From NCBI GenBank assembly GCA_016206805.1, contig JACQQX010000029.1, positions 1 to 51,715 on the forward strand: 51,715 nt of DNA, in the 5' to 3' direction. Numbering within the stretch: position 1 is the first letter of the stretch; each line of letters opens with the position of its first letter. The notes beneath the pieces were generated by a model that saw nothing but the letters and a program-made list of their open reading frames with translations, made no database searches and was not told where the DNA came from. The translations under genes and the position numbers were made by a program. Positions 16,026 through 30,466 of the stretch are shown here, piece by piece. The DNA comes from Candidatus Omnitrophota bacterium (GTDB lineage: Bacteria > Omnitrophota > Gorgyraeia > 2-02-FULL-51-18).

Positions 16026-16631
16026 TCAGTAATCTCTTTCATGATCCGTTAATTTCAATAACTCTTGTGGGGAATTGACATTCACTAGCGCCTGATCCTC
16101 ATCGCAGGGAACGGTCTTGCAAGAAACCCGCTCCAATAAATCACGCATGGACAATCGGTTATTTCTGAATTGCCCACGAATAATGTCGGCAACGGATGGC
16201 TCGTAAATTCCAGGAAAAGGCTGCATCGTTCCTTTCCGGTCGGCATAGGCAGTAATCAGCGCGTGAGAGGCTCGCTCGGTTAAAAGCTTCGACAACATCG
16301 AGGACGTCAGAGCCGGCATGTCGCACGTCAGCACCAAAAAAGAAGTCTGGGGGAAAATCGTCAAAGCCGTGTAAAGACCGCCCAGAGGCCCTTGATCCGG
16401 CAACTGATCGTGAATGGTCGCGCAGTTTAGAAAAGCATAATCGACGTCTTTGCGGCTGGAAACAATCGGCTCAAGATCCAGTTCCTTGAAAAGCGAGACG
16501 GCATGCTCGATCAAACGCGCTCCCCGATACATCGCCAAGGCTTTATTGGAACCAAAACGGGAACTTTTACCGCCAGCTAACACTAGTCCCCGAACGCATG
16601 CAGGATACCCACTCACTGGTGCCATCTTCAA
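16026..16631 (-). CDS. mobA: molybdenum cofactor guanylyltransferase
   Basis: LVLAGGKSSRFGSNKA motif. The start is uncertain (ATG 16631 or 16625, or GTG 16616). It overlaps the moaE 3' end. Confidence 0.85.
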   Translation of the reverse strand: MKMAPVSGYPACVRGLVLAGGKSSRFGSNKALAMYRGARLIEHAVSLFKELDLEPIVSSRKDVDYAFLNCATIHDQLPDQGPLGGLYTALTIFPQTSFLVLTCDMPALTSSMLSKLLTERASHALITAYADRKGTMQPFPGIYEPSVADIIRGQFRNNRLSMRDLLERVSCKTVPCDEDQALVNVNSPQELLKLTDHERDY

Positions 16632-17001
16632 AGACTTCCTTTTTCCAGATTGGAACTGTTTTTTTGATTTGTTCGATCAAAAACCTGCAGGCTTCAAAGG
16701 CTTCGGCCCGATGGGCAGAGCCCACGGAAATCGCGACCGCGGCTTCGCCTATTTCTAAATGACCGACACGATGGACGATGCGAATCTCATCAACTGCCCA
16801 TTGAGATCGCGCCTGATCGGCCAAAACTTGCAAAACCTTCTCGGCCATTGAACGGTAACAGTCGTAATGCAGGCTTTTCACACGACAGCCATGGTCATGA
16901 TTGCGGACCATTCCCACAAAAGACGCCGCCGCGCCGCAAGAGGGGTCAAAAGGCCGCGAAAAAAACTCTACCAAGTCAATCGGCTGATCGGTGATCATCA
17001 C
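16567..17001 (-). CDS. moaE: molybdopterin synthase catalytic subunit
   Basis: MoaE-like sequence (GAAASFVGMVRNH, VPIWKKE). Confidence 0.88.
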   Translation of the reverse strand: MMITDQPIDLVEFFSRPFDPSCGAAASFVGMVRNHDHGCRVKSLHYDCYRSMAEKVLQVLADQARSQWAVDEIRIVHRVGHLEIGEAAVAISVGSAHRAEAFEACRFLIEQIKKTVPIWKKEVFEDGTSEWVSCMRSGTSVSWR

Positions 17002-17240
17002 TAGCCGCCGGACATGGGCGTCATCAGCGCCAGCTCATCATTATTGGACAATTTTTTATCGGGTGTTTCAAAGTTTTCATTCAGCGCATAGCGTAAAGAA
17101 GCGGCGTTTAAAGGAAACCGGCCCGACTGGGCCAAAAGATGGACAGCGTCCTGGATCGTCGCGCCTTCCCGGATGTCGACGAGGCACGATGAACCAAACA
17201 TTTCCTTCAGTTCGGCGAAAAAAATCACTTTGATTCTCAT
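17001..17240 (-). CDS. moaD: molybdopterin synthase sulfur-carrier subunit
   Basis: 79 aa, ubiquitin-like, with a C-terminal GG. Confidence 0.85.
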   Translation of the reverse strand: MRIKVIFFAELKEMFGSSCLVDIREGATIQDAVHLLAQSGRFPLNAASLRYALNENFETPDKKLSNNDELALMTPMSGG

Positions 17241-18436
17241 GGCAGTGAATGGACCAGCACCATTTGGCTTTCTTCCAATACTCCACTGGAATTGGGCAAA
17301 ACCACGAAACTATCGGCTTCGCATAACGATGAGATCATATGGGATTTTTGATGTTGGAGAGGAATAACCGACTGCCCGTTTTCCATCTTACTTTTGATAA
17401 ATGAGAATTTATCCGGATCCGGTCTCAGAGATCCTTTTAACTCCCGATGAGACCAGGCCAGATAAGGCCGGGGATGTCCCATAAAATGCCGCAAAGCGGG
17501 ATAAACGTATTCGTAAAAACAGGTGAATACGCTGGCGGGGTTGCCGGGAAGACCAAACACCAAAGCGTTCTTTTTCTTGCCCGCATAAAGCGGTTTTCCC
17601 GGTTTTTGGCTGACTTTCCAAAACAGAGTCCTAACCCCTTCCTTTCCAAGAATTTCTTTCACAAAGTCATAATCCCCCACCGAGACCCCGCCCATCAAAA
17701 TCACAAAGTCACTCTCCTTTAAAACCAAATGGAGCGTTTTCTGAATTGATCGGGGCTCGTCCCGGAGTTTTCGAACCAAAAAAGGCCGTATTCTCATCTG
17801 GTCAAGCGCTGCCGTTATCATGGCCGTGTTGGAATCGTAAATTTTGCCCGGCGCTAGGGGGTTTCCGGGGGTTACCAGTTCATTTCCCGTCGCGATCAGA
17901 GAAACCATCGGCTTCTTATAAACTTTGATCCGGGTCATTCCCATCGACGCCAAAAAACCAATGCCGCCCGGATTCAAAACGGAGCCTTTGGACAACACCA
18001 GCTGTCCTTTTTCGATTTCCTCCGCCTGGTATCGGATATTTTTTCCTTTTCCAAGAGGCTGGCTGATGACCAGATGGCCGTTCCGGATGACCGCCCTCTC
18101 CTTTTCCAGAACCGCATCGGCTCCCAAGAGAATCGATGCGCCCGTCATGACGCGATAAGTCTCATTCGGAGAGAGCGTTTTATGGACGGAGTCGCCCGCC
18201 TTGATCGTTCCGCGGATGCGCAGCGCCACCGGCTGATCAGGCGTGGCACCAGCCGTATCTTGAGAGCGCAGCACAAAACCATCCATCGCCGAATTATCCG
18301 CCAAAGGCAAATGAACCGGTGACTTCACGTCTTGAGCGCACACAGCCCCCAACGCGGTCAAGAGAGCGATTTCTTCAATGGGAGCGGCAGGAGCATGCCT
18401 TTTGATTATTTTTTGAGCTTCTTGGAAAGAAACCAT
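17237..18436 (-). CDS. moeA: molybdopterin molybdenumtransferase
   Basis: MoeA domains are present (SAMDGF, TGNEL, GGVSVGDYD). I place the start at ATG 18436 (MVSFQEAQ), 2 nt after the upstream stop. Confidence 0.9.
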   Translation of the reverse strand: MVSFQEAQKIIKRHAPAAPIEEIALLTALGAVCAQDVKSPVHLPLADNSAMDGFVLRSQDTAGATPDQPVALRIRGTIKAGDSVHKTLSPNETYRVMTGASILLGADAVLEKERAVIRNGHLVISQPLGKGKNIRYQAEEIEKGQLVLSKGSVLNPGGIGFLASMGMTRIKVYKKPMVSLIATGNELVTPGNPLAPGKIYDSNTAMITAALDQMRIRPFLVRKLRDEPRSIQKTLHLVLKESDFVILMGGVSVGDYDFVKEILGKEGVRTLFWKVSQKPGKPLYAGKKKNALVFGLPGNPASVFTCFYEYVYPALRHFMGHPRPYLAWSHRELKGSLRPDPDKFSFIKSKMENGQSVIPLQHQKSHMISSLCEADSFVVLPNSSGVLEESQMVLVHSLP

Positions 18437-18438
18437 CG

Positions 18439-19191
18439 TCAGAAAATTTTCCCTAAGAGGTTTATGGAAACCAAAAGCAGTAAAAGCGCCGCAACTCGTT
18501 GCAGCCCCAGAACGGGCAAGCGACAAGCCCCTATTCGCGCGCCCAACTGGCCTCCCAAGAAAACCGCCAAAACCAGCAGCGGCAGGGATTCTATCGAAAT
18601 CATCATCCCTTTTTGGGCATGGCCCAAGAAGCCTGAAAGGGAATTAACAAAGATGAAAAAACTTCCAGCCGCGGCAATTTGTTTGGTGTCGAGCCAACGC
18701 GTTAGAAATAAAATGGGGCTTAAGAAAATACCGCCACCGATGCCTATGAGGCCGGACAGAAAACCCAAAATTCCCCCAATAGGCACTCCGATAGCCCAAA
18801 CGCGTGGAGTAGAAATGCGGCGCTTCTCCGTCAGATCTCGCCCAGCCAAAAGAATTCGGGAACTGGCTATCAGAAGCGAAAACCCTAGCAATAAATAAAA
18901 AAAATCTTTGCCAATGTCTATTTGAGCGCCCACAAAAGCCATGGGAACCGACAATAAGGCAAAAGGAAGCGTCCTTTGAGGACTAAAATGTCCTGCCCGA
19001 TAAAAACACCAGAAAGTTGAAGCGGAAACAATGAGATTGCAGACCAAGACAACCGATGGCGCCTGCTGATAAGAAAAACCGGCCATTAGAAGCAACGCCA
19101 GATAAGACGAGCCGCCGGCAAAGCCCGCCATGGAATAAACCAGCGCCACTCCAAAGAAGGCCATGGGCAGCCAAAGCGGGATATCCGTCAT
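18439..19191 (-). CDS. TSUP (TauE/SafE) family anion-transporter-like membrane protein
   Basis: About 8 TM segments and a duplicated GIGGG-type motif. It is embedded in the Moco gene string. Confidence 0.7.
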   Translation of the reverse strand: MTDIPLWLPMAFFGVALVYSMAGFAGGSSYLALLLMAGFSYQQAPSVVLVCNLIVSASTFWCFYRAGHFSPQRTLPFALLSVPMAFVGAQIDIGKDFFYLLLGFSLLIASSRILLAGRDLTEKRRISTPRVWAIGVPIGGILGFLSGLIGIGGGIFLSPILFLTRWLDTKQIAAAGSFFIFVNSLSGFLGHAQKGMMISIESLPLLVLAVFLGGQLGARIGACRLPVLGLQRVAALLLLLVSINLLGKIF

Positions 19192-20102
19192 GTGTTCACC
19201 TCATGTCCCAAGCCCTTCATCATTCCGTAGGCATGAAAGAGCGCCGGAAAAAGCGCGTCAAGCGACTCCTCGACTCCTTTGGAAGATCCTGGGAGATTAA
19301 TAATCAGTGTTTTGCCTTTTTGGCCGGCCAGTCCGCGCGACAGCATGGCATAAGGCGTCCGGCGCTGGCCATGGGACCGGGCGGCTTCCATGATGCCTGG
19401 AATGACGCGGTCTATCACGGCTTCAGTCGCCTCAACAGTGACATCCCGACCACTGAGCCCCGTTCCGCCGGTCGTCATCACAAGGTCTACCCCCTCCTCA
19501 CAATAAGAGCTCATGGCGGAAGCGATTAAAATCTTCTCATCGGCAATGACTTGATAATCCGGCTCGAGCCCAAACGACCTCAGTTTCTCAACAATCAAAC
19601 GGCCCGATTTATCCGAACGCGTGCCGCGCGAGGTGCTGTCGGAAGTCACGATCACGGCGGTTTTGAATCCGGGCGGAATTATTTCCTTAAAACCGCTTTT
19701 TCCGCCTGTTTTCTTAAGAAGCTTGGCGCCAAGAATTTCCAGAGAATCGTCGATGGGCTTTAACATGTCATAAACCGTTAACGCCGCAACGCTCGCGGCG
19801 GTTAAAGTTTCCATTTCCACGCCGGTTTTAGCCACCGCTTCCACGGTCGCGCGAATCGTGATCAGGGTTTCTTGGGTTTCAAACTCGATCTGGACCCAAT
19901 CAATGAGAATGGGATGGCAATACGGCAAAAGGTCGGGCGTTTTCTTGGCCGCCATGACGCCGGCCGCCCGCGCGATTGGCAGAATATCTTTTTTGGGGAC
20001 ATCATTGGCCAGAAGTCTCTTAATCGTGTCCGGCTGGGCCTGAATCCGGCTTTCGGCGACAGCCCGGCGCAGCGTTTCTATTTTGTGAGTAATGGAACGC
20101 AT
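19188..20102 (-). CDS. moaC: bifunctional cyclic pyranopterin monophosphate synthase MoaC / MogA-MoaB-type domain
   Basis: The N-terminal half has MoaC features (KKDILPIARAAGVMAAKKT, PYCHP). The C-terminal half is MogA/MoaB-like (TTGGTG, INLPGS). Confidence 0.88.
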   Translation of the reverse strand: MRSITHKIETLRRAVAESRIQAQPDTIKRLLANDVPKKDILPIARAAGVMAAKKTPDLLPYCHPILIDWVQIEFETQETLITIRATVEAVAKTGVEMETLTAASVAALTVYDMLKPIDDSLEILGAKLLKKTGGKSGFKEIIPPGFKTAVIVTSDSTSRGTRSDKSGRLIVEKLRSFGLEPDYQVIADEKILIASAMSSYCEEGVDLVMTTGGTGLSGRDVTVEATEAVIDRVIPGIMEAARSHGQRRTPYAMLSRGLAGQKGKTLIINLPGSSKGVEESLDALFPALFHAYGMMKGLGHEVNT

Positions 20103-20104
20103 GT

Positions 20105-21088
20105 TTATCCTCCCACCGCTGTCATGACAAAATCATGGTGCGCCACCGATGGCTGATTTAAAAAATGCTCTTCGGGACGATCGAACACTACCGACGCGAT
20201 TTGCCGCTTAATGCTTTCCCGGGAAAGCCCTTGGCGGAGCAAGGATCGAATATCCAAGTCTTCTTTTCCATGAAGACAGGTCTTCAGCATCCCATTGGCT
20301 TTAAGGCGCAAACGATTGCATTGGGCGCAGAACGCGTTGGACAAGGGGCTGATGAAGCCAACCCGAGACGCGGAGCCCTGAATAAAAAAACTTCTGGCCG
20401 GCGCATGGGGGCTTGAATGATCCGGCATTAAAGAATATTTTTCCTCGATCGCCTTTTGGGCGAATTCAGCGCTCAGAAAACGATTCTCTCTTATCGACTG
20501 AATTTCAGAGGCCGTCGGCATCCATTCAATGAATCGGATTTGAAACGCGTTTTCAACCGCAAACCGGACAAGATCCAGGATTTCATGGTCATTGACGCCT
20601 TTCATGAGCACCGCGTTGATCTTGATAGGGCCAATCCCCGCTTGGCCGGCGGCCTGGATGCCTTCCAGGACTTCGTTTAATTTATCCGCTCCCGTAATGC
20701 GCTTAAAATTATCCCGATCCAAGGTGTCCAAGCTGACATTGATGCGATCAAGGCCCGCTTTTTTTAAATCTCCGGCAAAATGCTTGAGCAGAACGCCATT
20801 GGTCGTCATCACCACTTCTTGCATCCCCGGAAAACCTTTGACGCGCTCCACCAGTTCCGGCACCCCTTTTTTGAGAAGGGGCTCCCCTCCTGTCAAACGC
20901 ACTTTGGAAATCCCCAGCTCCGCAAAAAGCGAGATAATGGCTACTGTTTCCTCCATATTCAAAAACTCATCCTCACCCAGAGGATGGAGAGGCCCCTTGG
21001 GCATGCAATAAAAGCATCGCAAATTGCAGCGATCGATTAAAGACACCCGTAAATAAGTCAGTTTTCGCCCGAATTTATCCCGCATCAT
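20105..21088 (-). CDS. moaA: GTP 3',8-cyclase (radical SAM)
   Basis: CNLRCFYCMP radical-SAM motif and a C-terminal CxxCNRLR motif. ATG at 21088 overlaps the porin TGA (ATGA). Confidence 0.92.
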   Translation of the reverse strand: MMRDKFGRKLTYLRVSLIDRCNLRCFYCMPKGPLHPLGEDEFLNMEETVAIISLFAELGISKVRLTGGEPLLKKGVPELVERVKGFPGMQEVVMTTNGVLLKHFAGDLKKAGLDRINVSLDTLDRDNFKRITGADKLNEVLEGIQAAGQAGIGPIKINAVLMKGVNDHEILDLVRFAVENAFQIRFIEWMPTASEIQSIRENRFLSAEFAQKAIEEKYSLMPDHSSPHAPARSFFIQGSASRVGFISPLSNAFCAQCNRLRLKANGMLKTCLHGKEDLDIRSLLRQGLSRESIKRQIASVVFDRPEEHFLNQPSVAHHDFVMTAVGG

Positions 21089-22524
21089 CAGAAATGAACC
21101 GTAACCTCCAGGAAAAATAAATCGTTGCGGCGTTGTGTCGTAAAAAACCGTTTGACCACGTCCTCTCCCCAAAAATGGCCGTAATACGCCATCACGGACA
21201 CATCGCTTGTCGCGTTCCAGATAACCGTAAGGTCTAAAAGCTTTCCCAGGTCATCCTGACCGTTGGAGGAGCGCGCCGCGAAATCGTCAAATGCGTTGCT
21301 ATGCGAAGCGCCTGAACCCAAATACCAGCGGTCAGCGCCTTCGGAAAGGCTCACGGCGTGAAATTCCGGCCGCAAGACAATATTGTCCTTGGGTTTAAGA
21401 ATGAGCGATAAAAACGTGTCTTTGGTATTCATCAGGTTATAGAGAATGGAAAAGGAATAAAGCCTGGCCGTCGGCAGCATTTGATAAAAAGTCTCGTGGT
21501 CGCCGTCGGCGGGATCATCATCCCCGGAGCCGACATTGAAACCGGCGCGCGCCCAAGGCTGCCAGGGCAGGGCATTGAGTTGATAGCCGGTTTCCACGGC
21601 GTAAGCATAAGCCGAGTGATTCAACTCAAACCAGTCTCCGGTTTGCCGGGCCGCCCATCCCAAAATATCCCACGTGCCCGGGCCGATATCATAACGGCCC
21701 GCCAGATGCCCGCCAAAAACGTGAAAATCCGCCTGGCTTGCCGTATGAGCCGGGATCGAGCGGCCGGTATTGTCCAAACGGGTTGTCGTGGCAATAATGT
21801 CCCGATGGTCGTCATAACGGTAATAAAAAAGCTGCTCTTCCATGCCGGGAATAAAAGCGTCTTTTTTGATATTGGCTTCCAGGGCAAGGACATCAATGCC
21901 TTGAACGGAACGATGGGCATGTTCCTCAAACCCTCCCTGGGTGGGACTAAAAGCCGCCCAATTGATATTGGACCAGTCGTTTTCGTAAGCGATTTTGGCG
22001 CCATCAAAGGAACGGCCGTAATGAGACCATTCAAAACCGCCGATAAGCCTGTCAGCGACGCGCATATTCTTGAGCCATCCGATTTTCTTGTCGGTCGATT
22101 TCATTTCATTGCCGCTGGAATAATTGAACCGTCCAACGGTCCCGGTAACTCCCGCCGGCCATTTCAAATCCAGATTCAAATATTTGACAAAAACGTCATA
22201 GGAATTCCTGTCGTTGGCATTGGAAAAATAGAGGGCGCCGGCGCCCGCTCCCGCGCTGGCGCCTACGGGAAGATTTGAAAGCTGCGTGTACTGGCCAACG
22301 GCATTTAACGCAAATAAATCATGAGCCCACTTCCCGCCCAGGCGCAGCTGATTGGCCGCGAAGGCATAGTCATTGTCGGCGCCGGATGCCAAAGCATCCC
22401 AGACTTCAACCCGCAGTCGATCCCTTCCAAAAAAGGACAAGGCGTTGTGCGATTCTTCCGCTTTCGCCGCGATACCGGACAAAATAACCGCTCCAGCGAT
22501 GGCTAGTCTTGCCGTTTTTTTCAA
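21088..22524 (-). CDS. putative outer-membrane porin (alginate-export-like beta-barrel)
   Basis: A TTG start at 22524 gives the signal peptide (M)KKTARLAIAGAVILSGIAAKA, preceded by GGAGA. The sequence is rich in beta-strand pattern and ends in a terminal F. The track N-terminus, which overlaps narK, is rejected. Confidence 0.55.
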   Translation of the reverse strand: MKKTARLAIAGAVILSGIAAKAEESHNALSFFGRDRLRVEVWDALASGADNDYAFAANQLRLGGKWAHDLFALNAVGQYTQLSNLPVGASAGAGAGALYFSNANDRNSYDVFVKYLNLDLKWPAGVTGTVGRFNYSSGNEMKSTDKKIGWLKNMRVADRLIGGFEWSHYGRSFDGAKIAYENDWSNINWAAFSPTQGGFEEHAHRSVQGIDVLALEANIKKDAFIPGMEEQLFYYRYDDHRDIIATTTRLDNTGRSIPAHTASQADFHVFGGHLAGRYDIGPGTWDILGWAARQTGDWFELNHSAYAYAVETGYQLNALPWQPWARAGFNVGSGDDDPADGDHETFYQMLPTARLYSFSILYNLMNTKDTFLSLILKPKDNIVLRPEFHAVSLSEGADRWYLGSGASHSNAFDDFAARSSNGQDDLGKLLDLTVIWNATSDVSVMAYYGHFWGEDVVKRFFTTQRRNDLFFLEVTVHF

Positions 22525-23714
22525 GAAGTCTCCGTTAAAACGACAAATGTCCACCCTTTTTGCACCGCCCTCAATAAAATCAGAGCGCCAGCGCTGGTTA
22601 GCGCGAACACGGCGAAACCAACCCCATAGGAGCCGAGCTGATCCTTGAAATAACCCAAAAGTGTGGGCAGGAAAAATCCTCCCAATCCCCCGGCCGCTCC
22701 GACGATGCCCGTCATGACGCCGAGCTCTTTCCGAAAACGCAGCGGCACCAGCTGAAACACGGCGCCATTGCCCATCCCCAGGCACGCCATGCTCAAAAAA
22801 ATAAGAAGCGTGACGACGTAGAGCGGAGGGAGAAAAGAAACCCCCATCATGAGAACCGCCACCGCTCCGTAAAGCGCGGTGAGGATACGAATACCCCCGA
22901 ACCGGTCTGAAAGATAGCCGCCAATCGGGCGGACAAAACTGCCCGCGGCCACACACAATGCGGTGAAATACCCGGCCGTAACCTTGGAAAGACCGTATTG
23001 ATCATGGAAGAAAATACCCAGAAAGCTCGCCAGCCCCACGAATCCTCCAAAGGTGATGCTATAGAAAAAACAAAACCAGTAGGTGTCGTTTTCCTTGCAA
23101 ACAGACCAGTAGTCGGAAAACTTTTTCGGGGCGGGACGATCCGGGCTTTCTTTGGCAAAGACGCAAAAAAATAAAAGCGTGGCTAGAACCGGGATGAGCG
23201 CGAGACCGAAAACATTGTGCCAGCCAAAAGCCTCCGCCAGCTTAGGCGCGAAGAGACTGGCCAATACGGTGCCGCTATTGCCCGCGGCGGCGATGCCCAT
23301 CGCCATCCCCTGATGTTGGGGAGGATACCAGCGGCTGGCCAGCGGCAGCGCCACGGCAAAACTGCCGCCGGCGACACCCAAGAGCAGTCCCAACAACAGA
23401 ACTTCGTTAAAAGTATTGGCGAAGAGCCAAACGCAAAGCAGCGGAATGATGACGATGAGCTGGGCCACAACGCCTGTTTTCTTGGGGCCGATATGATCGA
23501 CGAGAAATCCAAGCGGAATGCGCGCCAGAGATCCGCCTAAAAGCGGTATAGCGGCAATAAGCCCTTTTTGCGTGGATGTGAGGCCGAAATCCTTCGAGAT
23601 ATAAACCCCCAATACGCCCAGTAAAACCCAAACCATGAAACTGATATCGAAATACAAAAAAGCCGAAAAAAGCGTCGGCGGATGCCCGCTTTTCAAAAAG
23701 TCCTTGATGCGCAT
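22521..23714 (-). CDS. narK: MFS nitrate/nitrite transporter (NNP family)
   Basis: 12-TM MFS with glycine-rich NNP-type motifs (AAAGNSGT, GAAGGLGGF). Confidence 0.85.
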   Translation of the reverse strand: MRIKDFLKSGHPPTLFSAFLYFDISFMVWVLLGVLGVYISKDFGLTSTQKGLIAAIPLLGGSLARIPLGFLVDHIGPKKTGVVAQLIVIIPLLCVWLFANTFNEVLLLGLLLGVAGGSFAVALPLASRWYPPQHQGMAMGIAAAGNSGTVLASLFAPKLAEAFGWHNVFGLALIPVLATLLFFCVFAKESPDRPAPKKFSDYWSVCKENDTYWFCFFYSITFGGFVGLASFLGIFFHDQYGLSKVTAGYFTALCVAAGSFVRPIGGYLSDRFGGIRILTALYGAVAVLMMGVSFLPPLYVVTLLIFLSMACLGMGNGAVFQLVPLRFRKELGVMTGIVGAAGGLGGFFLPTLLGYFKDQLGSYGVGFAVFALTSAGALILLRAVQKGWTFVVLTETS

Positions 23715-23748: not shown

Positions 23749-25926
23749 TTAATTTCTTTTCTCGACGCGAACGGCCGCCTGTTTATAATTCGGCTCCCTC
23801 GAAAACGGGTCGCAGTCGCTGACCGTCAGATGGTTGGCGTTGGCCTCGGCGTAATGAAACGGCATGAACACCTGCCCCGGCGCCACCGTTTGCGTGACAC
23901 GCAGAACCACGCGTTCCACCGAGCCGCGCCGCGAGACAAGCCGCACATAGTCGCCGTGCTCCACTTTCAACTTTTCGGCGTCGTGCGGGTTCATTTCCAC
24001 CCACGCCTCGGGCGACAGACGGTTGAGAAGCGGAATCTGCCCCGTTTTGGTGCGCGTGTGCCAATGCTCGACCGTGCGGCCCGTATTCAGCCAAAACGGG
24101 TAGCCCTCGTCCGGCGTTTCTGGGGCCGGCGCCCATTCAACCGGCCAGAGCTTCGCGCGCCCGTCGCCGGTTTGAAAAATCCCGTCTTCGTAAAGCCGGG
24201 AGGCCTGGCCGGGATCGCGCGGGCTGTCCGCGCCGAAAGGCCATTGGATGCCGCCGTGCTTTTCCAAAAGCTCATACGTGATTCCCGAATAATCACAAAG
24301 CCTGCCGCGGCTTATTTTTTGCCATTCTTGAAACGCGTGCCGAGGCTCGGTCCAGCCGGGAAAAAGCGTGTCGTAAACGCCCATCTGCCTGGCCACCGCC
24401 AGAAAAATGTCAAAGTCGGACCTGGCTTCGCCCGGAGGCTCCACCGCCTTATTGACTTTGCTCACGCGCCGCTCGGAGTTGGTGTACGTTCCCTCCTTCT
24501 CGCCCCACACGGCCGCCGGCAGAATCAGGTCCGCCACTTCGGTGGTAGGAATGGGGTGATACCCGTCCTGAACCACGAGAAAGTCAAGTCGGTCCAGACA
24601 ATCCAAAAGATAATTCTGATTCGGAAAAGAAACCAGCGGGTTTGTCGCGATGATCCAAAGCCCTCTGATCTTCCCGCCTAGCACCGCTTCGATAATGTCT
24701 GGGTACGCCAGGCCGCGCGAGGAGGGGATCGATTCTTCGGCCACGCCCCATAGGCCCGCCAGTTCCGCGCGGTGGGACGGCTCCTCAAATTTGCGATAAC
24801 CCGGAAGCGAGGACGTAAATCCGGACTCGCGCGTGCCCATGGCGTTGCACTGCCCGGTGATGGAAAAAGGAGAAGCGCCCACCTTCCCGACATGCCCCGT
24901 GATGAGCGCGAGATTGCAGATGGCGTTCACCGTTTCCGTGCCCTGCGTGCTGTGATTGACGCCCATCGTCCAGCCGATGAAGGGCGCCCTCGCGCCGGCG
25001 TAGAGATGCGCCGTCCGGCGGATGTCGGAAACGGAAAGCCCCGTGATTTCACCGACGCGCTCGGGCGTGTAAGTTTCCAGGCGCTCCTTGAGCTCCCGAA
25101 AACCGGTGGTGTGATTTTCGATGTAGCCGGGATCGATCCTTTTTTCTTTTATGAGAATATGCATGATGCCGTTCAAAAGCGCGATGTCGGTGCGCGGCTT
25201 GAGCGGCAGGTGCAGGTCCGCCATCATGGCGGTTTTGGTGACGCGCGGATCGGCGACGATGACCGTCCGCTTTTGGTTTTTCTCCATCCGGTAGCAGAGA
25301 ATCGGGTGGTTATCGGCGATATTCGCGCCGATGAGAAATAAAAGATCGGATTTCTCAAGGTCCTCGTAAGCGCCGGGCGGCCCGTCACTGCCGAAAGAGC
25401 GTTTGTACCCCGCCACGGCGCTGGACATGCAAAGGGTGGTGTTGCCGTCAAAATTTTTTGTCTTAAAACCCAGCTGAATGAGCTTGCCCAGCGTGTAAAA
25501 TTCTTCCGTCACCAACTGCCCCGTGCTGATGACGCCCACCGACTCGTTGCCGTATCGGTGCTGAATGGTTTGAAAACGGCCCACCATCTCGCGAATGGCC
25601 CACTCCCAATCGATGCGGCGAAATTTCCCTTTTTTCACGCGCAGGAGCGGGTAGCGGGCGCGGTTGGGGGACGTGATCGCGTAATGCTCGGCCAGCCCCT
25701 TGGGACAGAGCCGCCCTTCGTTGACCGGATGAGCGGCGTCGCCCTGCACGCTCACGGGCTTGCCGTCCTTGACGCCGATAAACATCCCGCAACCGACGGA
25801 GCAATACCCGCAAGTCGTCGCCACCCAGCGATCGGGGATCTTCGCCCGCGACATAAAGCCAAACTGCTCATCCACGCCGTAGGCGTATTTTTCCTTCTCG
25901 ATATCCAGACCGAGCGACTTTTTCAA
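23749..25926 (-). CDS. nasA: molybdopterin oxidoreductase, assimilatory nitrate reductase-like catalytic subunit
   Basis: N-terminal 4Fe-4S motif CGYCSVGCG...C. No twin-arginine signal. Size and overall similarity match NasA/NarB, and narK and nirBD are neighbours. Confidence 0.8.
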   Translation of the reverse strand: MKKSLGLDIEKEKYAYGVDEQFGFMSRAKIPDRWVATTCGYCSVGCGMFIGVKDGKPVSVQGDAAHPVNEGRLCPKGLAEHYAITSPNRARYPLLRVKKGKFRRIDWEWAIREMVGRFQTIQHRYGNESVGVISTGQLVTEEFYTLGKLIQLGFKTKNFDGNTTLCMSSAVAGYKRSFGSDGPPGAYEDLEKSDLLFLIGANIADNHPILCYRMEKNQKRTVIVADPRVTKTAMMADLHLPLKPRTDIALLNGIMHILIKEKRIDPGYIENHTTGFRELKERLETYTPERVGEITGLSVSDIRRTAHLYAGARAPFIGWTMGVNHSTQGTETVNAICNLALITGHVGKVGASPFSITGQCNAMGTRESGFTSSLPGYRKFEEPSHRAELAGLWGVAEESIPSSRGLAYPDIIEAVLGGKIRGLWIIATNPLVSFPNQNYLLDCLDRLDFLVVQDGYHPIPTTEVADLILPAAVWGEKEGTYTNSERRVSKVNKAVEPPGEARSDFDIFLAVARQMGVYDTLFPGWTEPRHAFQEWQKISRGRLCDYSGITYELLEKHGGIQWPFGADSPRDPGQASRLYEDGIFQTGDGRAKLWPVEWAPAPETPDEGYPFWLNTGRTVEHWHTRTKTGQIPLLNRLSPEAWVEMNPHDAEKLKVEHGDYVRLVSRRGSVERVVLRVTQTVAPGQVFMPFHYAEANANHLTVSDCDPFSREPNYKQAAVRVEKRN

Positions 25927-27593
25927 CGCGCGCTCCCGCTTACGGTGAAAAATGAACCCGGCATATTTTTCGGCACGACCGTCACAAAGAAAAGATAGCG
26001 CCCCAGAAATTCTCCGGTCAGCGCGATCAAAAACGAGACGCCGGCAAAAACCAAAAGCTGCGCCGCTCCGGCGGCCGCGTGCGTGAGAAAATAAATAAGA
26101 TAAACCAGCGGCAGGATGAAGCTTCCCAGCACCAGAAGTCCGATGCGCGTCAGAAAATGACGGTTAAAACGGCGAACCAGGAGCACGGCTGAGTCATAAA
26201 GTTCGGGTGTCTTCTCGCCGCTCAAATGAAACAGTCTCGCGAAAAGGACGAGTAACTGCGCTAAAGCGGCCAAGCCCGACACCCCCAGCCATCCAAAAAT
26301 AGGCCCCAACGTCGAAGCGGAAATTTTTTCATGGCCGCTCATCAAAACATAAATCGAATAAACCACGAAACTAAAAAGAGGCCCCAGAATAAAACCGGTC
26401 AGAAAAAATCGAAGCGGTGTGCGAATCGTGTTCCACGACGGCCGCGCGGGAACCAGGTAAATTTTGGCGCTCGCGTAGATTCCGGCCATGCCGGAGGCGG
26501 CCACGATGCCACCCAAAACCAGCCGGGCCGCCGCCGGAACGGGAAATTGAAAAAAGTTCGCGGCCAGCAGCAAAGTCGCGTATCCTCCTCCCAGAAATGA
26601 GAATATCGTGAAAAAAAGAACTTCGCGTGAAAGCCAGGACCGTTTCCACATGCGCAGCGCTTTGTAGGCAAAAAGCGGCCGGCCCAGATGAAACACCGAC
26701 GCTGAAAGCGCGCCACCGGTGACAATGAGAATGCCGCAAGCGCCGTAAACGAGAAACTCCCGGAGCGGCTGAAGAAATCGAAACACGCCCGATAATAGAT
26801 CTCCCAGCCATAGCGTCAGAAATCCCCCGGCGGCCAGCTGTGTCAGAACGGTCATAAAAATCAGCGAAGTGTGCGGATGTTCCGGCTGAACCCGGTGCCG
26901 GTTGAGCTTGAGCGTCTTGCCGGGCATGTCATCGGGAAGCGTGATCCTTGTCGTGGAAAGGGTGATGCCGGAGTCCGGCAAATAAGGCGCGTCCGCTGAC
27001 GCGTGATTTTCACGCCAGTCTGCGGTGGAAACGGTTTCAATCCGTATCGCCGACTCGGGGCACGCGGCGACACAGGCCGGAGCCATACCGTCGGCGAGCC
27101 TGGAGTGACACATGTCGCACTTGGTCACGATATTCCGCTCGGGATTGAACTGCGGCACGCCATACGGGCAATTCCAGGTGCAGTACTGACAGCCGATGCA
27201 TTCGTCGGCTTTATGCTTGACGATGCCCGTGACTTTATCTTTTTCATAAGCGTCCGTCGGGCATCCCGTCAGGCAGGAGGGGTCCAGGCAATGGTTGCAG
27301 GCCATGGAAAAATGATGACGCTTCGCGTGGGGATAAACGCCCCCCTCAATCTCCCCCACCCGCCGCCAGTTGACGACGGAGGGGTTATTGTTCTGCTCGT
27401 TGCAGGCCACCACACAGCACTGGCACCCCACACAGCGCGACATGTCAAAGTGAAACCGGTACTGCTGGCCCTCCTTGAGCGGCTCCGAGGGGATGAGAAC
27501 GGCGGGAGCGTAAATCCCCTCCTTGTTGACGCGGTTTTTGAGAGGAAGATTGTTGGTGTCGAGCATATCGACCAGCGAAAACGTTTCAGACAT
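25923..27593 (-). CDS. fusion of a DmsB-like 4x[4Fe-4S] ferredoxin domain and a DmsC-like 8-TM membrane anchor
   Basis: Four Cys clusters (CVGCQCCVVAC, CNHCLDPSC, CIGCQYCTWNC, CDMC...CVAAC) are followed by eight hydrophobic helices. Confidence 0.75.
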   Translation of the reverse strand: MSETFSLVDMLDTNNLPLKNRVNKEGIYAPAVLIPSEPLKEGQQYRFHFDMSRCVGCQCCVVACNEQNNNPSVVNWRRVGEIEGGVYPHAKRHHFSMACNHCLDPSCLTGCPTDAYEKDKVTGIVKHKADECIGCQYCTWNCPYGVPQFNPERNIVTKCDMCHSRLADGMAPACVAACPESAIRIETVSTADWRENHASADAPYLPDSGITLSTTRITLPDDMPGKTLKLNRHRVQPEHPHTSLIFMTVLTQLAAGGFLTLWLGDLLSGVFRFLQPLREFLVYGACGILIVTGGALSASVFHLGRPLFAYKALRMWKRSWLSREVLFFTIFSFLGGGYATLLLAANFFQFPVPAAARLVLGGIVAASGMAGIYASAKIYLVPARPSWNTIRTPLRFFLTGFILGPLFSFVVYSIYVLMSGHEKISASTLGPIFGWLGVSGLAALAQLLVLFARLFHLSGEKTPELYDSAVLLVRRFNRHFLTRIGLLVLGSFILPLVYLIYFLTHAAAGAAQLLVFAGVSFLIALTGEFLGRYLFFVTVVPKNMPGSFFTVSGSAR

Positions 27594-27894
27594 GGATGTG
27601 TATTTTTCCGTCTTTTAATTTCACAGGATATGATTTCACCTGCCCCGTCCCCCCGGAAAGCGCGCAGCCGGTTTCCAGGCTGATCTTCCAATTATGCAGC
27701 GGACAAAAAACCGCCTTTCCGGCGACGATGCCGTCGGCCAGAGGCCCCTCCTTGTGGGGACAGCGGTTATCGACGGCGAGGAAATCGCCGCCCAGATTAA
27801 AAAGCGCGATCTCATTTTCCCCGATTTTCACGCGGCGGCCTTCCTTCGCCGGGATGAGTTCCGCGTCCTTCACGACTCTCCAGCCTTTTTCCAC
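27586..27894 (-). CDS. nirD: nitrite reductase small subunit (Rieske-type)
   Basis: CPHKEGPL and CPLHNWK motifs. The GTG start overlaps the nirB TAG by 1 nt. Confidence 0.85.
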   Translation of the reverse strand: MEKGWRVVKDAELIPAKEGRRVKIGENEIALFNLGGDFLAVDNRCPHKEGPLADGIVAGKAVFCPLHNWKISLETGCALSGGTGQVKSYPVKLKDGKIHIHV

Positions 27895-30332
27895 TAGTGA
27901 GCCCCCATCAGCGCGTCGGCGTCCTTCGGCAGGACGAAGTCGCTGAACTGAAGCGGCTGCGCGGGTTTTTTATGCTCGTCCCAGGGATTGACGACTTTGG
28001 CGCGCGCTCTGCTCAGACGCTCCAGGAGCGCTTTTTTCTTTTCTTCGGGAGCCAGCGTCGTCTCGCGGCGGATTTTTTCAAGGCCCACGCGCGGAATAAA
28101 ATCATACGTGCGCTCCAGATACTCGCCGTTTTCGCGGTAATACTGAAAGAAAAGAAGCGCCGCCTCGAAGGCCTCCTCGGTGGTCTTGACGGCGCAAAGA
28201 ATGTCGGCCGAGCGCACGATTTTGCCGGCCGCGCCGCCGATGACCACCTGCCAGCCGCCTTCCATTCCGACGAGACCGATGTCTTTCACTGTCGCCTCGG
28301 CGCAGTTGCGCGGACAGCCGACGACACCCATCTTCACCTTCGCCGGCGTGTAAAGTCCCTCCAGCAGTGTTTCCAGGCGAATGCCCGCCGCGATGGAATC
28401 CTGCGTGCCGTAGCGGCAAAAGTCGGTGCCCACGCAGGACTTGACCATGCGCACGGCCTTGGCGTAGGCGTATCCCGATGTCATGCCCAGGTCCGCCCAG
28501 ATTTTCGGCAGGTCCTCTTTTTTGACGCCCAAAAGGTCGATGCGCTGACTTCCGGTGACCTTGACCATCCGCACGTTGTATTTTTCGGCGGCGTCGGCGA
28601 TTTTCCGAAGCTCACTCGGGGTCGTCACACCGCCGCGCATCCGCGGAATAACGGAAAAAGTGCCGTCTTTTTGAATATTGGCGTGAACGCGGTCGTTGAT
28701 GAAACGCGCCGAGCGGTCTTCCTCATGATCGCCCAGCCACACCTCATCCACGATGAAACTCAACGCCGGCTTGCAGAGGGAACAGCCGACGCCGTCACCG
28801 TAAATATCCAGAACGTCCTGCGCTTTCCTGATTTTTTGCGTTTGAATCATCGTCCGGATCCGCTCTTTCGGGAAAGGAACGCAGGGGCACAAAACGTCTT
28901 TTTTCTCCTCCTCAAACTCGCCGCCGCAAACGGCTTTTAAAATATCCTGCACAAGCCCGGCGCACGTGCCGCAGCCCGTGGAGGCCTTGGTGCAGGTCTT
29001 GACGGCCGAGAAAGTTTTGAGGCCGTTGTCGCGAACGGCCGACACGATCTGCCCCTTGGTCACGCCGATGCATCCGCAAATCGTGTCCGAATCCGCCCGC
29101 GACATGACATCCGACGGCGAGCCCGCCACGGCGGGCGGCGTGTCAAAAAGAAGACGCTGGCGCTTTTCATCCACAAGAGCGCGGCTTCGAATCATTTCCA
29201 AAATCCGGTTGGCGTCCGAGGCGTCGCCGATCAAAATCGTCCCGATCACGCGCTCGTTTTGGACCACCACTTTTTTGTAAATGCCGAAAGCGTGGTCCTG
29301 GTAGGAGACGATCTCCTTGTCCGGCTCCTCGCCCTTAAAGTCTCCCGCCGAAAAAAGCTCGATGCCCATCACCTTGAGTTTCGTGGCCAAAACCGATCCC
29401 TCATAAACCGGCCCCTTGTTGCCGGTGATTGTCGCGGCCAGCACTTTGCCCTGGTCGTAGAGCGGCGCCACCAGACCATACACTTTTTCGCGGTGCTCCA
29501 CGCATTCCCCGACGGCGAAGATATCCGGATCGCTTGTTTCCATAAAATCATTCACCACGACGCCGCGGTTGATTTTAAGGCCCGCCGTTTTGGCCAGCTC
29601 CACATGGGGGCGTATCCCGCAGGCGATGACGACCATGTCCGCCTCGACGATGGAACCGTCCTTGAACATCACGCCTTCCGCGCGGGCCTCGCCCATCACG
29701 CGCGCGGTGCTTTTATTGAGCAGAACGTCGATGCCGAGCTTTTCGATCTCGCGCTTCAAAAACTGCCCTCCGACGGCGTCCAGCTGGACTTCCATGAGGC
29801 GGTCCATTAAATGCACGACCGTGACGTGAACGCCGTGATTGGAAATGCCGCGCGCCGCCTCAAGGCCCAGAAGCCCGCCGCCGATCACCACCGCCTTTTT
29901 GGCGCTTTCGCAGGACTCCAAAATCGCGGCCGTGTCGGCCATATTCCGGAAAGTGAAAACACCCTCTTTTTTGACGCCATCGATGGGAGGGATGAAGGGA
30001 ACGCTTCCCGTCGCCAAAAGAAGCCGGTCGTATGGATGGGGCATTCCGTCCGCGGTGGTGACGATTTTCTTTTGAGCGTCAATCTCCGCCGCGCGGGTAT
30101 TCAAACAAAGTGTGATGCCGCTGGAGCGGTACCACTCCTCCGTGTTGATGGTGATCTCCTCGACGGACTTCTCCCCGGCCAGCACCGCGGACAAAAGGAT
30201 GCGGTTATAATTCAAATAAGGCTCCTCGCTCAGAACCTTCACCTCAAAACCGGGCTTAAATTTTAAAATGGCGTCCAGGCAGGCCATGCCCGCCATTCCG
30301 TTTCCGATTACTAGAAGTTTTGGTTTTTCCAT
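27894..30332 (-). CDS. nirB: NAD(P)H-dependent assimilatory nitrite reductase large subunit
   Basis: FAD/NAD fold (VIGNGMAG), a BFD-like 2Fe-2S domain, and a sulfite/nitrite reductase siroheme domain (CPRNCAEA). I place the start at ATG 30332 (MEKPKLLVIG), preceded by AAGGGTGG. Confidence 0.9.
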   Translation of the reverse strand: MEKPKLLVIGNGMAGMACLDAILKFKPGFEVKVLSEEPYLNYNRILLSAVLAGEKSVEEITINTEEWYRSSGITLCLNTRAAEIDAQKKIVTTADGMPHPYDRLLLATGSVPFIPPIDGVKKEGVFTFRNMADTAAILESCESAKKAVVIGGGLLGLEAARGISNHGVHVTVVHLMDRLMEVQLDAVGGQFLKREIEKLGIDVLLNKSTARVMGEARAEGVMFKDGSIVEADMVVIACGIRPHVELAKTAGLKINRGVVVNDFMETSDPDIFAVGECVEHREKVYGLVAPLYDQGKVLAATITGNKGPVYEGSVLATKLKVMGIELFSAGDFKGEEPDKEIVSYQDHAFGIYKKVVVQNERVIGTILIGDASDANRILEMIRSRALVDEKRQRLLFDTPPAVAGSPSDVMSRADSDTICGCIGVTKGQIVSAVRDNGLKTFSAVKTCTKASTGCGTCAGLVQDILKAVCGGEFEEEKKDVLCPCVPFPKERIRTMIQTQKIRKAQDVLDIYGDGVGCSLCKPALSFIVDEVWLGDHEEDRSARFINDRVHANIQKDGTFSVIPRMRGGVTTPSELRKIADAAEKYNVRMVKVTGSQRIDLLGVKKEDLPKIWADLGMTSGYAYAKAVRMVKSCVGTDFCRYGTQDSIAAGIRLETLLEGLYTPAKVKMGVVGCPRNCAEATVKDIGLVGMEGGWQVVIGGAAGKIVRSADILCAVKTTEEAFEAALLFFQYYRENGEYLERTYDFIPRVGLEKIRRETTLAPEEKKKALLERLSRARAKVVNPWDEHKKPAQPLQFSDFVLPKDADALMGAH

Positions 30333-30466
30333 ACCACCCTTAAAAAAAATCCCCGCCCTGAGGGAGCACCATTGCTCCGCCAAAGCGAGGACATCTTTAT
30401 CCTTGACGATGAATCGTTATAAGCCAGAGTTTATCCGGCCCGTATTACAGTTGGATTAAGCGGAGG

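Follow-up and report, generated by a model that had tools for sequence, protein, structure and literature searches.

How a nitrate reductase of the assimilatory type could draw its electrons from the membrane quinol pool is the question raised by a minus-strand gene string in a 51,715-nucleotide stretch of DNA from a Candidatus Omnitrophota bacterium (the window). Its genes are, in order, nirB, nirD, those for a DmsB-DmsC fusion of 556 aa and a Mo-bisPGD enzyme of 725 aa, and narK. Stop and start codons overlap along the run from nirB to the Mo-bisPGD enzyme, and the same string extends to a porin gene near a set of cofactor genes:

27894..30383, minus strand: nirB, NAD(P)H nitrite reductase large subunit (TIGR02374, 895 bits, cut-off 578; Pfam Pyr_redox_2, Fer2_BFD, NIR_SIR); the true start is likely the ATG at 30332
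27586..27894, minus strand: nirD, Rieske-type small subunit, 102 aa (Pfam Rieske, 57.7 bits; Rieske_2, 50.8 bits)
25923..27593, minus strand: fused electron-transfer and anchor subunit (DmsB-like plus DmsC-like), 556 aa
27024..27464, minus strand: four-cluster [4Fe-4S] ferredoxin domain of the fusion, residues about 44-190, predicted cytoplasmic (TIGR02951 DMSO_dmsB, 156 bits)
25983..26873, minus strand: DmsC/NrfD-like 8-TM quinol-anchor domain of the fusion, residues about 241-537 (PF04976, 68.5 bits)
23749..25926, minus strand: putative Nas-type Mo-bisPGD nitrate reductase catalytic subunit, 725 aa, TTG start, lacking a Tat signal
22521..23714, minus strand: narK-type MFS nitrate/nitrite transporter (MFS_1, 174 bits; orthologues adjoin the fusion-NasA pair in other loci)
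21088..22524, minus strand: outer-membrane porin gene, Alginate_exp family (PF13372, 94 bits)
16026..21172, minus strand: Moco/bis-PGD cofactor gene block (Pfam matches, as for its members below)
20105..21172, minus strand: moaA
19188..20102, minus strand: moaC-mog
18439..19191, minus strand: TauE-like gene
17237..18526, minus strand: moeA
16026..16631, minus strand: mobA

Both central reading frames and the overlap between them, as given in a preliminary description of the sequence, were confirmed. At the junction, the fusion gene ends in ...cgt TGA and a TTG begins one base upstream, creating the sequence TTGA and a 4-nt overlap. The TTG is preceded by GGGAG ~6 nt to its 5′ side, and its use as the start agrees with the N-termini of orthologues, which follow the pattern M-x-x-K-x-x-LG-x-D. 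At the other end, nirD overlaps the start of the fusion gene by 8 nt. This small gene, lying between nirB and the fusion gene, had been missed in the preliminary description.

The 725-aa protein carries the Pfam domains Molybdop_Fe4S4, Molybdopterin and Molydop_binding. As had been claimed, it has an N-terminal CxxCxxxC cluster and no Tat leader: the FS0 cysteines are C39, C42, C46 and C74 (CxxCxxxC...C; PF04879, 65 bits) and are invariant across 30 orthologues, while the N-terminus, which forms a conserved extension of ~30 residues, contains neither a twin-arginine motif nor a hydrophobic stretch. The molybdenum ligand is C166, followed by M167. The best solved relative is Desulfovibrio desulfuricans NapA (2NAP family, 479 bits), with which the Cys-Met motif is aligned (TLCMSSA in the catalytic subunit, RLCMASA in NapA).

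Phylogenetic analysis placed this protein among nitrate reductases. In a 161-row FastTree phylogeny, enzymes encoded next to the fusion form a single clade (support 100) within a 116-row clade whose named references are NapA of E. coli and S. meliloti, NasA of Haladaptatus and plasmid-borne Nas proteins. The Cys ligand is kept in 113 of these 116 rows, nearly always followed by Met. All Cys/Sec-His formate dehydrogenases (C/U-H at the ligand position) lie outside this clade (support 100), as do FdhF and FdsA. A 55-row IQ-TREE phylogeny agrees, with clade support of 100. The catalytic subunit thus groups with Cys-Met nitrate reductases, as the preliminary description had supposed, and not with formate dehydrogenase or Psr/Phs; both the tree and the ligand motif set it apart from Cys/Sec-His formate dehydrogenases. 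It passed no curated NCBIfam equivalog cut-off (NasC NF047855, 531 bits against 1100; NasA_Halo NF041323, 509 against 1000; NapA TIGR01706, 431 against 931), and the family representative P0124 likewise falls below the NasC, NasA and NapA cut-offs. Its top NCBIfam score was to a broad Fdh-alpha model (586, cut-off 666). In a library clustered at 50% identity, the sole full-length representative more than 50% identical to it reaches 66%, and the next full-length one 48%. Ligand motif, clade membership and the nirBD/narK neighbourhood together suggest that the protein is a nitrate reductase with nitrate as its substrate.

The partner encoded upstream was described as four DmsB-type [4Fe-4S] motifs followed by eight DmsC/NrfD-like helices, and this architecture was recovered in full. 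Sixteen cysteines, all invariant in homologues, are arranged in four CxxCxxCxxxC-type groups (54/57/60/64, 99/102/107/111, 132/135/138/142 and 159/162/174/178). Fer4_11 covers residues 94-185, and PF04976 (DmsC) residues 241-536. The DMSO_dmsB score is below its cut-off of 214, and Foldseek matched the FeS domain to PsrB, ArrB and FdnH. An AlphaFold2 model (pLDDT 82.9) contains eight TM helices, and hhalign related the anchor domain to E. coli DmsC with a probability of 98%. H302 and E324 of the fusion correspond to H65 and E87 of the menaquinol site of E. coli DmsC and are invariant in 119/119 sequences; substitutions of H65 block quinol oxidation by the E. coli protein (PMC8076601). Across phyla there is little or no variation in the membrane-domain motifs HLGRP, SWLSRE, PARPxW and GRYLFF. 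Among the homologues no certain split B/C form was seen, the protein being fused throughout.

The two proteins are predicted to form a complex, with an ipSAE of 0.89 as compared to 0.07 for the best control, although a pass in such a prediction may reflect only likeness to similar complexes already solved. Among solved complexes, 58 of 80 attain this ipSAE mark; among mismatched pairs, 2 of 110 do. The runs had at least 74% of their contacts in common, and the partner pLDDT was 78. In the predicted complex, the FS0 loop of NasA and its conserved N-terminal extension abut the part of the fusion that holds the first cluster.

Orientation in the membrane determines which side of it the enzyme would serve. 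No Tat or Sec signal was found on either the catalytic subunit or the fusion. In the fusion, loops on the FeS side carry a mean of 18.2 Lys+Arg against 2.9 on the opposite side, a bias in the same direction in 118/118 homologues; the same comparison gives 2 vs. 4 for E. coli DmsC. Because neither protein has a signal peptide, the charge bias is consistent and narK is in the operon, the FeS domain is predicted to be cytoplasmic and the anchor inverted relative to E. coli DmsC, where the positive-inside rule and structure prediction are both predictive methods. The topology therefore agrees with the cytoplasm-facing arrangement first proposed, as opposed to a periplasmic FeS domain.

This wiring is found in hundreds of species. 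In a collection with one genome per species, 529 places were confirmed to carry the fusion, and a NasA orthologue (56-82% identical) directly follows it in 88/88 tabulated loci with downstream sequence, which include Omnitrophota, Chlamydiota, Leptospirales, Nitrospira, Acidobacteriota, Actinomycetota, Dormibacterota and Burkholderiales records. Among 41 related genomes, the fusion adjoins the orthologue in all five carriers besides the window's own; in a sixth it is cut off at a contig end. The pairing also holds in a more divergent sister clade, in which the enzyme P0129 (45% identical) directly follows a fused FeS-DmsC protein, and the pairing is thus conserved. In other loci, the neighbouring genes encode NarK together with either NirBD or a nitrite reductase resembling sulfite reductase, the latter accompanied by a CysJ-like flavoprotein. 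NirBD adjoins the pair in most loci, several have no NirB within reach, and in Turneriella the pair is unchanged beside a nitrite reductase of a different type, without NirBD. A Tat-bearing relative, P0127 (locus L107), has a catalytic subunit 46% identical to that in the window and unfused genes in the order A-B-C. We found no published description of a nitrate reductase linked to an FeS/DmsC fusion, and such an enzyme is absent from two reviews of these families.

The host encodes the components that such a system would use. Two MqnA/D-family proteins, UbiA, two NuoD, COX1 and an Sdh/Frd flavoprotein were identified, pointing to futalosine-pathway menaquinone synthesis, complex I and a haem-copper oxidase. 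The 725-aa protein is the sole full Mo-bisPGD enzyme found in the 1.39-Mb genome (87.6% complete); a partial PF00384 match on contig 22 is presumably NuoG-like.

Taken together, these data argue that the locus probably encodes a complex iron-sulfur molybdoenzyme made of two polypeptides and attached to the inner membrane at its cytoplasmic side, which reduces imported nitrate with electrons from (mena)quinol. NarK would carry nitrate into the cytoplasm, and quinol would bind at a Q site (H302, E324) that the first bundle of four helices in the DmsC-like domain forms, a site that the predicted inversion of the entire anchor, compared with E. coli DmsC, would turn towards the cytoplasm. Electrons would pass through the four [4Fe-4S] clusters of the DmsB-like domain to FS0 and then to Mo-bisPGD, and the co-transcribed NirBD would reduce nitrite to ammonium. 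As a single side of the membrane would host both quinol oxidation and nitrate reduction, the enzyme is not expected to be electrogenic in its own right; if so, electron flow from NADH to nitrate could still run through proton-pumping complex I. The idea that the quinol pool feeds a cytoplasm-facing enzyme, put forward in the preliminary description, is thus supported by clade, topology and pairing, with quinol suggested as the donor by the invariant H65/E87 equivalents and the menaquinone pathway in the genome. An assimilatory role is suggested by gene context alone.

The same complex and electron path could instead be respiratory, acting as a cytoplasm-facing quinol:nitrate terminal reductase, a NarGHI analogue without the redox loop that, with NirBD, would carry out nitrate ammonification and conserve energy only at complex I. 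The lack of a second full Mo-bisPGD enzyme among those found in the small genome, the complex I and menaquinone genes, and the presence of Tat-exported respiratory-type enzymes among the nearest relatives all fit this role, and NirBD can also serve dissimilatory nitrite ammonification, enterobacteria using it for fermentative nitrite reduction. We nevertheless consider it unlikely, as nitrate-assimilation partners (NirBD or the sulfite-reductase-like enzyme with its CysJ-like flavoprotein, and NarK) adjoin in other loci, the haem-copper oxidase implies that the organism respires oxygen, and many carriers are records of Acidobacteriota, which are largely aerobic soil bacteria. Assimilatory and respiratory roles are not mutually exclusive. 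A broader proposal, which we advance only tentatively, is that the family represents a previously unrecognised third link between nitrate reduction and the respiratory chain: an A-B-C quinol:nitrate reductase of the L107 type, originally periplasmic, would have been flipped into the cytoplasm with B fused to C, would serve small-genome aerobes or microaerobes such as this Omnitrophota bacterium both as assimilatory enzyme and as terminal quinol oxidase, and might be electrogenic at this step via conserved NrfD-type ion pathways.

Other alternatives alter the electron donor or the compartment. In Paracoccus the Rieske protein NasG passes NADH-derived electrons to NasC, and by analogy with NasB-NasG-NasC the electrons could come from NADH via NirB and NirD, the fusion being a mere membrane tether and FeS relay whose DmsC-like domain does not oxidise quinol. 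Such a route would account for nirB and a Rieske-type nirD directly upstream, translationally coupled to the fusion, and for NirBD adjoining in most loci. It is rendered quite improbable by the unchanged Turneriella pair, by the loci with no NirB within reach and by the (near-)invariance across phyla of H302, E324 and the four membrane motifs, which is hard to explain for a passive tether. Least of all do we expect the complex to face the periplasm, like DmsABC or Nap, or to act on a substrate other than nitrate (e.g. chlorate, selenate or formate). The anchor is homologous to that of periplasm-facing E. coli DmsC, the closest solved catalytic subunit is the periplasmic NapA, the best NCBIfam score is to the Fdh-alpha model, and Nap enzymes can reduce chlorate and perchlorate (PMC12769810). 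A periplasmic location is, however, opposed by the lack of Tat or Sec signals on both proteins, where the relative P0127 has a textbook one, by the uniform charge bias in 118/118 homologues and by the nitrate importer in the operon; a different substrate is opposed by the Cys-Met rather than Cys/Sec-His ligand motif and by the nitrite reductase adjoining in most loci.

The preferred reading, a cytoplasm-facing quinol-linked nitrate reductase, shares features with several known systems. Classical Nas enzymes are served by soluble donors, either ferredoxin or flavodoxin, or else NADH by way of NasB/NasC/NasG or of fused flavin domains. Like NasA, NasC and NarB of Klebsiella, Paracoccus, Bacillus, cyanobacteria and haloarchaea, the protein studied here is a Mo-bisPGD enzyme predicted to be cytoplasmic, has FS0 at its N-terminus and a Cys-Met ligand motif, and lacks a Tat signal; it is encoded with a nitrite reductase and a nitrate transporter and placed in the same large clade. 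It differs in that its constant, overlapping partner is a membrane-integral four-cluster FeS/DmsC fusion, with NirB/NirD present but not constant; in forming its own tight clade below the equivalog cut-offs; and in the N-terminal extension that touches the FeS domain in the predicted complex. NarG comes from another clade and binds molybdenum through Asp, and quinol is oxidised on the periplasmic side by the dihaem cytochrome b NarI, creating a redox loop. With NarGHI the system would share quinol-dependent nitrate reduction at a cytoplasmic active site fed by NarK, but its anchor is of the DmsC family, not NarI, and the narH model scored only 43 bits against the fusion. The proposed wiring is therefore distinct from textbook Nas and NarGHI, as first claimed, the partner being neither a soluble donor nor a NarH/NarI pair and the catalytic subunit not a NarG.

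DmsAB is exported by Tat to the periplasm, and both termini of DmsC lie outside. As in DmsABC, PsrABC, ArrAB(C) and FdnGHI, a Mo-bisPGD subunit is combined here with a four-cluster ferredoxin and an 8-TM haem-free quinol anchor. E. coli DmsB and DmsC are 37.5% and 31% identical to the matching halves of the fusion, the Q-site residues are conserved, and folds match PsrB, PsrC, ArrB and FdnH. The present system departs from DmsABC in joining B and C in a single polypeptide encoded ahead of A (order BC-A), in lacking a Tat signal, in its inverted loop charges and in having a catalytic subunit of the Nas/Nap rather than the DmsA clade. According to the review PMC8076601, a cytoplasm-facing orientation with an inverted anchor has been proposed for just one described NrfD/DmsC-type complex, the sulfite:quinone oxidoreductase SoeABC of Allochromatium vinosum and Aquifex aeolicus, whose SoeC also carries H65 and E87. 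By that description it resembles the present system in its anchor and in a catalytic subunit without a Tat signal. SoeABC differs in having three separate subunits instead of two polypeptides, a catalytic subunit of a separate Mo-enzyme family, bSreA/SoeA (Wells 2023), where ours falls in the Nas/Nap clade (in trees without a SoeA reference), and electron flow from substrate to quinone, which here would run from quinol to substrate. In the Tat-dependent P0127 system, the B subunit is 43% identical to the FeS domain of the fusion and the DmsC-family C subunit keeps HLGRP and the Glu, whereas a canonical twin-arginine signal on A and separate B and C genes after A set it apart. In its C subunit, loop 3-4, on the far side from the FeS subunit, is rich in Arg; this charge pattern is opposite to that of the fusion and agrees with the usual periplasm-facing orientation.

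The window carries a minus-strand gene string, hppA through mobA, with short gaps or overlaps between genes, in which a fused iron-sulfur/membrane-anchor protein lies directly upstream of a nitrate reductase-like molybdoenzyme, here called NasA.

Genes of the minus-strand string in the window
30467-32929, minus strand, hppA, H+-translocating pyrophosphatase
27894-30383, minus strand, nirB (TIGR02374, 895 bits)
27586-27894, minus strand, nirD, Rieske-type
25923-27593, minus strand, DmsB-DmsC-like fusion protein, 556 aa
23749-25926, minus strand, molybdoenzyme (NasA), 725 aa
22521-23714, minus strand, narK, MFS transporter
21088-22524, minus strand, Alginate_exp-family outer-membrane porin (PF13372, 94 bits), between narK and moaA
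end of the string, minus strand, Moco/bis-PGD synthesis genes: moaA, moaC-mog, TauE-like, moeA, mobA

The preliminary description, which proposed that a Nas-type enzyme is paired with a DmsB-DmsC fusion and possibly linked to quinol, placed and described both ORFs correctly as they are found in the window; its gene layout holds for these two but omitted nirD, whose stop overlaps the fusion start by 8 nt. The fusion stop and the TTG start of the NasA gene overlap within TTGA, a four-base stretch closely preceded by GGGAG. hppA lies on the same strand, 83 nt upstream of the nirB ORF as listed (134 nt if nirB begins at ATG 30332), and co-transcription is possible but not certain. The porin is possibly nitrate-specific. 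A TauE/SafE-family membrane protein amid the Moco genes (18439-19191, minus strand) may be an anion (molybdate?) transporter; no modABC genes were seen within the window.

NasA contains the three Pfam domains of Mo-bisPGD enzymes, with the cysteines of its N-terminal [4Fe-4S] cluster, FS0, at C39/42/46/74. The closest solved relative is monomeric NapA of Desulfovibrio desulfuricans (479 bits), in which the Mo-ligand cysteine and the following methionine are aligned with those of NasA (RLCMASA vs. TLCMSSA). No curated NCBIfam equivalog is passed (scores/cut-offs: Fdh-alpha 586/666, NasC 531/1100, NasA_Halo 509/1000, NapA 431/931); Fdh-alpha gives the top score, but a formate dehydrogenase identity is ruled out by the Cys-Met motif and by tree position. 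In a search of 1.8 billion proteins grouped into clusters at 50% identity, a single full-length representative was more than 50% identical to NasA (P0124, 66%), the next full-length one being 48% identical. A tree of 161 proteins combined the library representatives with 16 orthologues encoded next to a fusion and with named references, drawn from annotated plasmids and from E. coli, comprising nitrate-type enzymes (NapA of E. coli and S. meliloti, NasA of Haladaptatus, and Nas-type enzymes of Paracoccus, Ralstonia, Erwinia and S. meliloti pSymB) and formate dehydrogenase types (FdhF of E. coli, FdsA-type of Skermanella). A 116-row, mostly Cys-Met clade was recovered with support of 100, leaving all Cys/Sec-His formate dehydrogenases outside, and nested within it the fusion-adjacent enzymes formed a single clade, also with support of 100. 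An IQ-TREE analysis of 55 rows agreed. By its Cys-Met motif and this position, NasA is assigned to the nitrate reductase type, as a subfamily of its own and not a formate dehydrogenase, in keeping with the preliminary description.

The NasA N-terminus (MKKSLGLDIEKEKYAYGVDEQFGF...) is kept among orthologues; a twin-arginine motif and a hydrophobic core are both absent from it. In a few orthologues a "TAT" flag arose from a loose regular expression that matched RRRLGID of the N-terminal extension, where there is no hydrophobic core. Residues 1-30 carry a motif, LG-x-D-x3-EKY-x-Y-x2-D-x2-FG, that lies ahead of FS0 in every fusion-adjacent orthologue; it stands where periplasmic relatives have their Tat signal and rests on the FeS domain in the predicted complex described below.

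Residues 44-190 of the fusion match a DmsB-type four-cluster ferredoxin (TIGR02951, 156 bits), and none of its 16 cysteines varies among 78 homologues. Pfam DmsC matches residues 241-536, which align with E. coli DmsC at 98% hhalign probability. In DmsC, His65 and Glu87 have been placed in the quinol site, and substitution of His65 blocks quinol oxidation (PMC8076601); their counterparts in the fusion, H302 and E324, are invariant in 119/119 sequences. An AlphaFold2 model (pLDDT 82.9, pTM 0.84) has eight TM helices, and Foldseek likened its FeS part to PsrB, ArrB and FdnH and its membrane part to ActC and PsrC. A search among shorter proteins for a split B/C form returned mostly contig-end fragments and no certain case: at one locus (L108) the FeS part lies in another frame, which may reflect a frameshift, and a second candidate begins at a contig edge.

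TM1 of the fusion and TM1 of DmsC correspond in the alignment, so that both termini, the quinol site and the FeS domain share one side, as function would require. Lys+Arg residues average 18.2 on the FeS side (13.3 without the linker) and 2.9 on the other, and the same bias is present in 118/118 full-length homologues; for E. coli DmsC, which has periplasmic termini, the same count gives 2 vs. 4. Because of this bias, the positive-inside rule predicts that the whole fusion module is inverted relative to E. coli DmsC and that its FeS domain is cytoplasmic, the side presumed in the preliminary description. Neither NasA nor the fusion has an export signal. A cytoplasmic FeS domain fits the Tat-less catalytic subunit and the nitrate importer encoded in the operon.

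When NasA was modeled with fusion residues 1-240, the predicted complex gave an ipSAE of 0.89 (best control, 0.07), passing a mark reached by 58/80 solved complexes and 2/110 mismatched pairs, although this may reflect mere likeness to known complexes, since PsrAB, FdnGH and ArrAB have already been solved. Three runs agreed in at least 74% of contacts, with a partner pLDDT of 78. The FS0 loop (59-79) and N-terminal extension (6-29) of NasA face the first-cluster region of the fusion (53-92, 150-181), a predicted interface with the usual A-B geometry.

Homologues of the fusion number in the thousands, and scanning one genome per species by pattern confirmed relatives at no fewer than 529 places. 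Record labels among the best 80 of these include Omnitrophota, "Planctomycetia", Chlamydiae, Turneriella, Nitrospira, many Acidobacteriota, Actinomycetes, Acidimicrobiia, Dormibacterota and Burkholderiales. At every tabulated locus with downstream sequence (88/88), a protein 56-82% identical to the window NasA directly follows the fusion; NirB is encoded at most tabulated loci and NarK at many. Among 41 related genomes, the fusion adjoins the orthologue in all five that bear one besides the window's own, and another fusion is truncated by the end of its contig. On plasmids, tblastn gave only ordinary unfused DmsB+DmsC pairs at ~34% identity.

A sister-clade enzyme 45% identical to NasA (P0129) also directly follows a fused FeS-DmsC protein, which is 36% identical to the window fusion, has a K+R distribution of 14 vs. 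3 and retains both the H and the E. Just outside the fusion clades, P0127 (46% identical) bears a textbook Tat signal, DRRAFLK, and its operon (L107:6001-9764) encodes A followed by a separate 198-aa four-cluster ferredoxin B, 43% identical to the fusion FeS domain, and a 311-aa DmsC-family C whose loop 3-4 is Arg-rich. By sequence this is the ordinary periplasm-facing A-B-C version and resembles a periplasmic, DmsABC-style quinol:nitrate reductase; no description of such an enzyme was found in the literature. The presence of this Tat-bearing, unfused operon near the fused clades points to an origin of the fused form by topological inversion from the A-B-C form, or the reverse; the fused module may be either Soe-like or L107-like in descent.

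P0131 (929 aa, sister clade) joins a NasA-like domain to an N-terminal extension of ~245 residues resembling an SdhB/FrdB-type iron-sulfur subunit (CRGAVCGSC..., CILCAAC...), and may be another wiring of the clade to a quinone-linked module. The nearest non-orthologous relative, P0126 (L106:661-8173, 48% identical), has a long N-terminal extension that is not Tat-looking, and differs in its partners, with neighboring genes for a GltD-like FeS flavoprotein, a Rieske protein, cytochrome b and cytochrome c. In a neighboring clade, annotated "nitrate reductases" on Deinococcus (L094:5917-8836) and Hymenobacter (L095:5902-8676) plasmids have Cys-Thr (RLCTATA) where others have Cys-Met; a small gene of ~150 aa comes next in each case, annotated "molybdopterin oxidoreductase" in Hymenobacter.

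The host genome (1.39 Mb, 87.6% complete) encodes two MqnA/D-family proteins (futalosine pathway), one UbiA prenyltransferase, two NuoD, a heme-copper oxidase and an Sdh/Frd flavoprotein, and because of these genes a complex I-fed quinone pool is plausible. Cytochrome bd, NrfD and a second full Mo-bisPGD enzyme were not found in this 87.6% complete genome. Gene architecture, clade membership, conservation and the topology prediction are results of the present analysis; from there we infer that quinol is the donor, nitrate the substrate and assimilation the physiological role. Nitrate would enter through the porin and then NarK; (mena)quinol would be oxidized at the cytoplasm-facing Q site (H302 + E324), electrons would pass through the four [4Fe-4S] clusters to FS0 and Mo-bisPGD, and the nitrite produced would go to NirBD. 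With E°' of ~ -74 mV for menaquinone and ~ +420 mV for nitrate/nitrite, the quinol:nitrate step would be strongly exergonic. It would itself conserve no energy, because both half-reactions would be cytoplasmic, and flow from NADH to nitrate would still pass via complex I.

The same complex might instead have a respiratory or dissimilatory role, which we consider unlikely. Electrons could also arrive from NADH via the adjacent NirB/NirD, leaving the anchor as a passive tether. The Q-site residues are invariant, however, and in Turneriella the nitrite reductase is of another type (sulfite reductase-like with a CysJ-like flavoprotein), yet the fusion-NasA pair is unchanged; this route therefore seems improbable. 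A periplasmic orientation, which E. coli DmsC exemplifies and the Lys+Arg bias opposes, or a substrate other than nitrate, is very improbable.

Classical nitrate assimilation uses soluble reductants. If this enzyme is instead quinol-fed, nitrate assimilation would, in hundreds of species, many Acidobacteriota included, compete directly with respiration for quinol; the NADH required would first pass via proton-pumping complex I, altering the energetics of growing on nitrate, and gene surveys scoring "nasA" would merge two differently wired enzymes. The fusion and its Tat-bearing unfused relative also offer a natural test case for evolutionary flips of membrane-complex topology. Wells et al. 2020 (PMC7331816) state that canonical four-cluster or membrane-anchor subunits accompany no member of the Fdh/Nas/Aio/Nap clade, and a 2021 review of NrfD-like complexes lists twelve kinds in its abstract, none a nitrate reductase, and uses "nitrate" once in its whole text (PMC8076601). 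Our literature search found no description of a membrane-bound or quinol-dependent assimilatory nitrate reductase; a "cytoplasmic nitrate reductase" of Thermogutta is ordinary NarGHI. The present system is, as judged from its genes, a widespread complex iron-sulfur molybdoenzyme whose catalytic subunit is Nas-type and whose anchor module is fused and predicted to be inverted. SoeC is the sole subunit named as inverted in the review (PMC8076601); an inverted DmsC-type anchor would be common to the sulfite:quinone oxidoreductase SoeABC and the fusion, of which the latter would be a second example.
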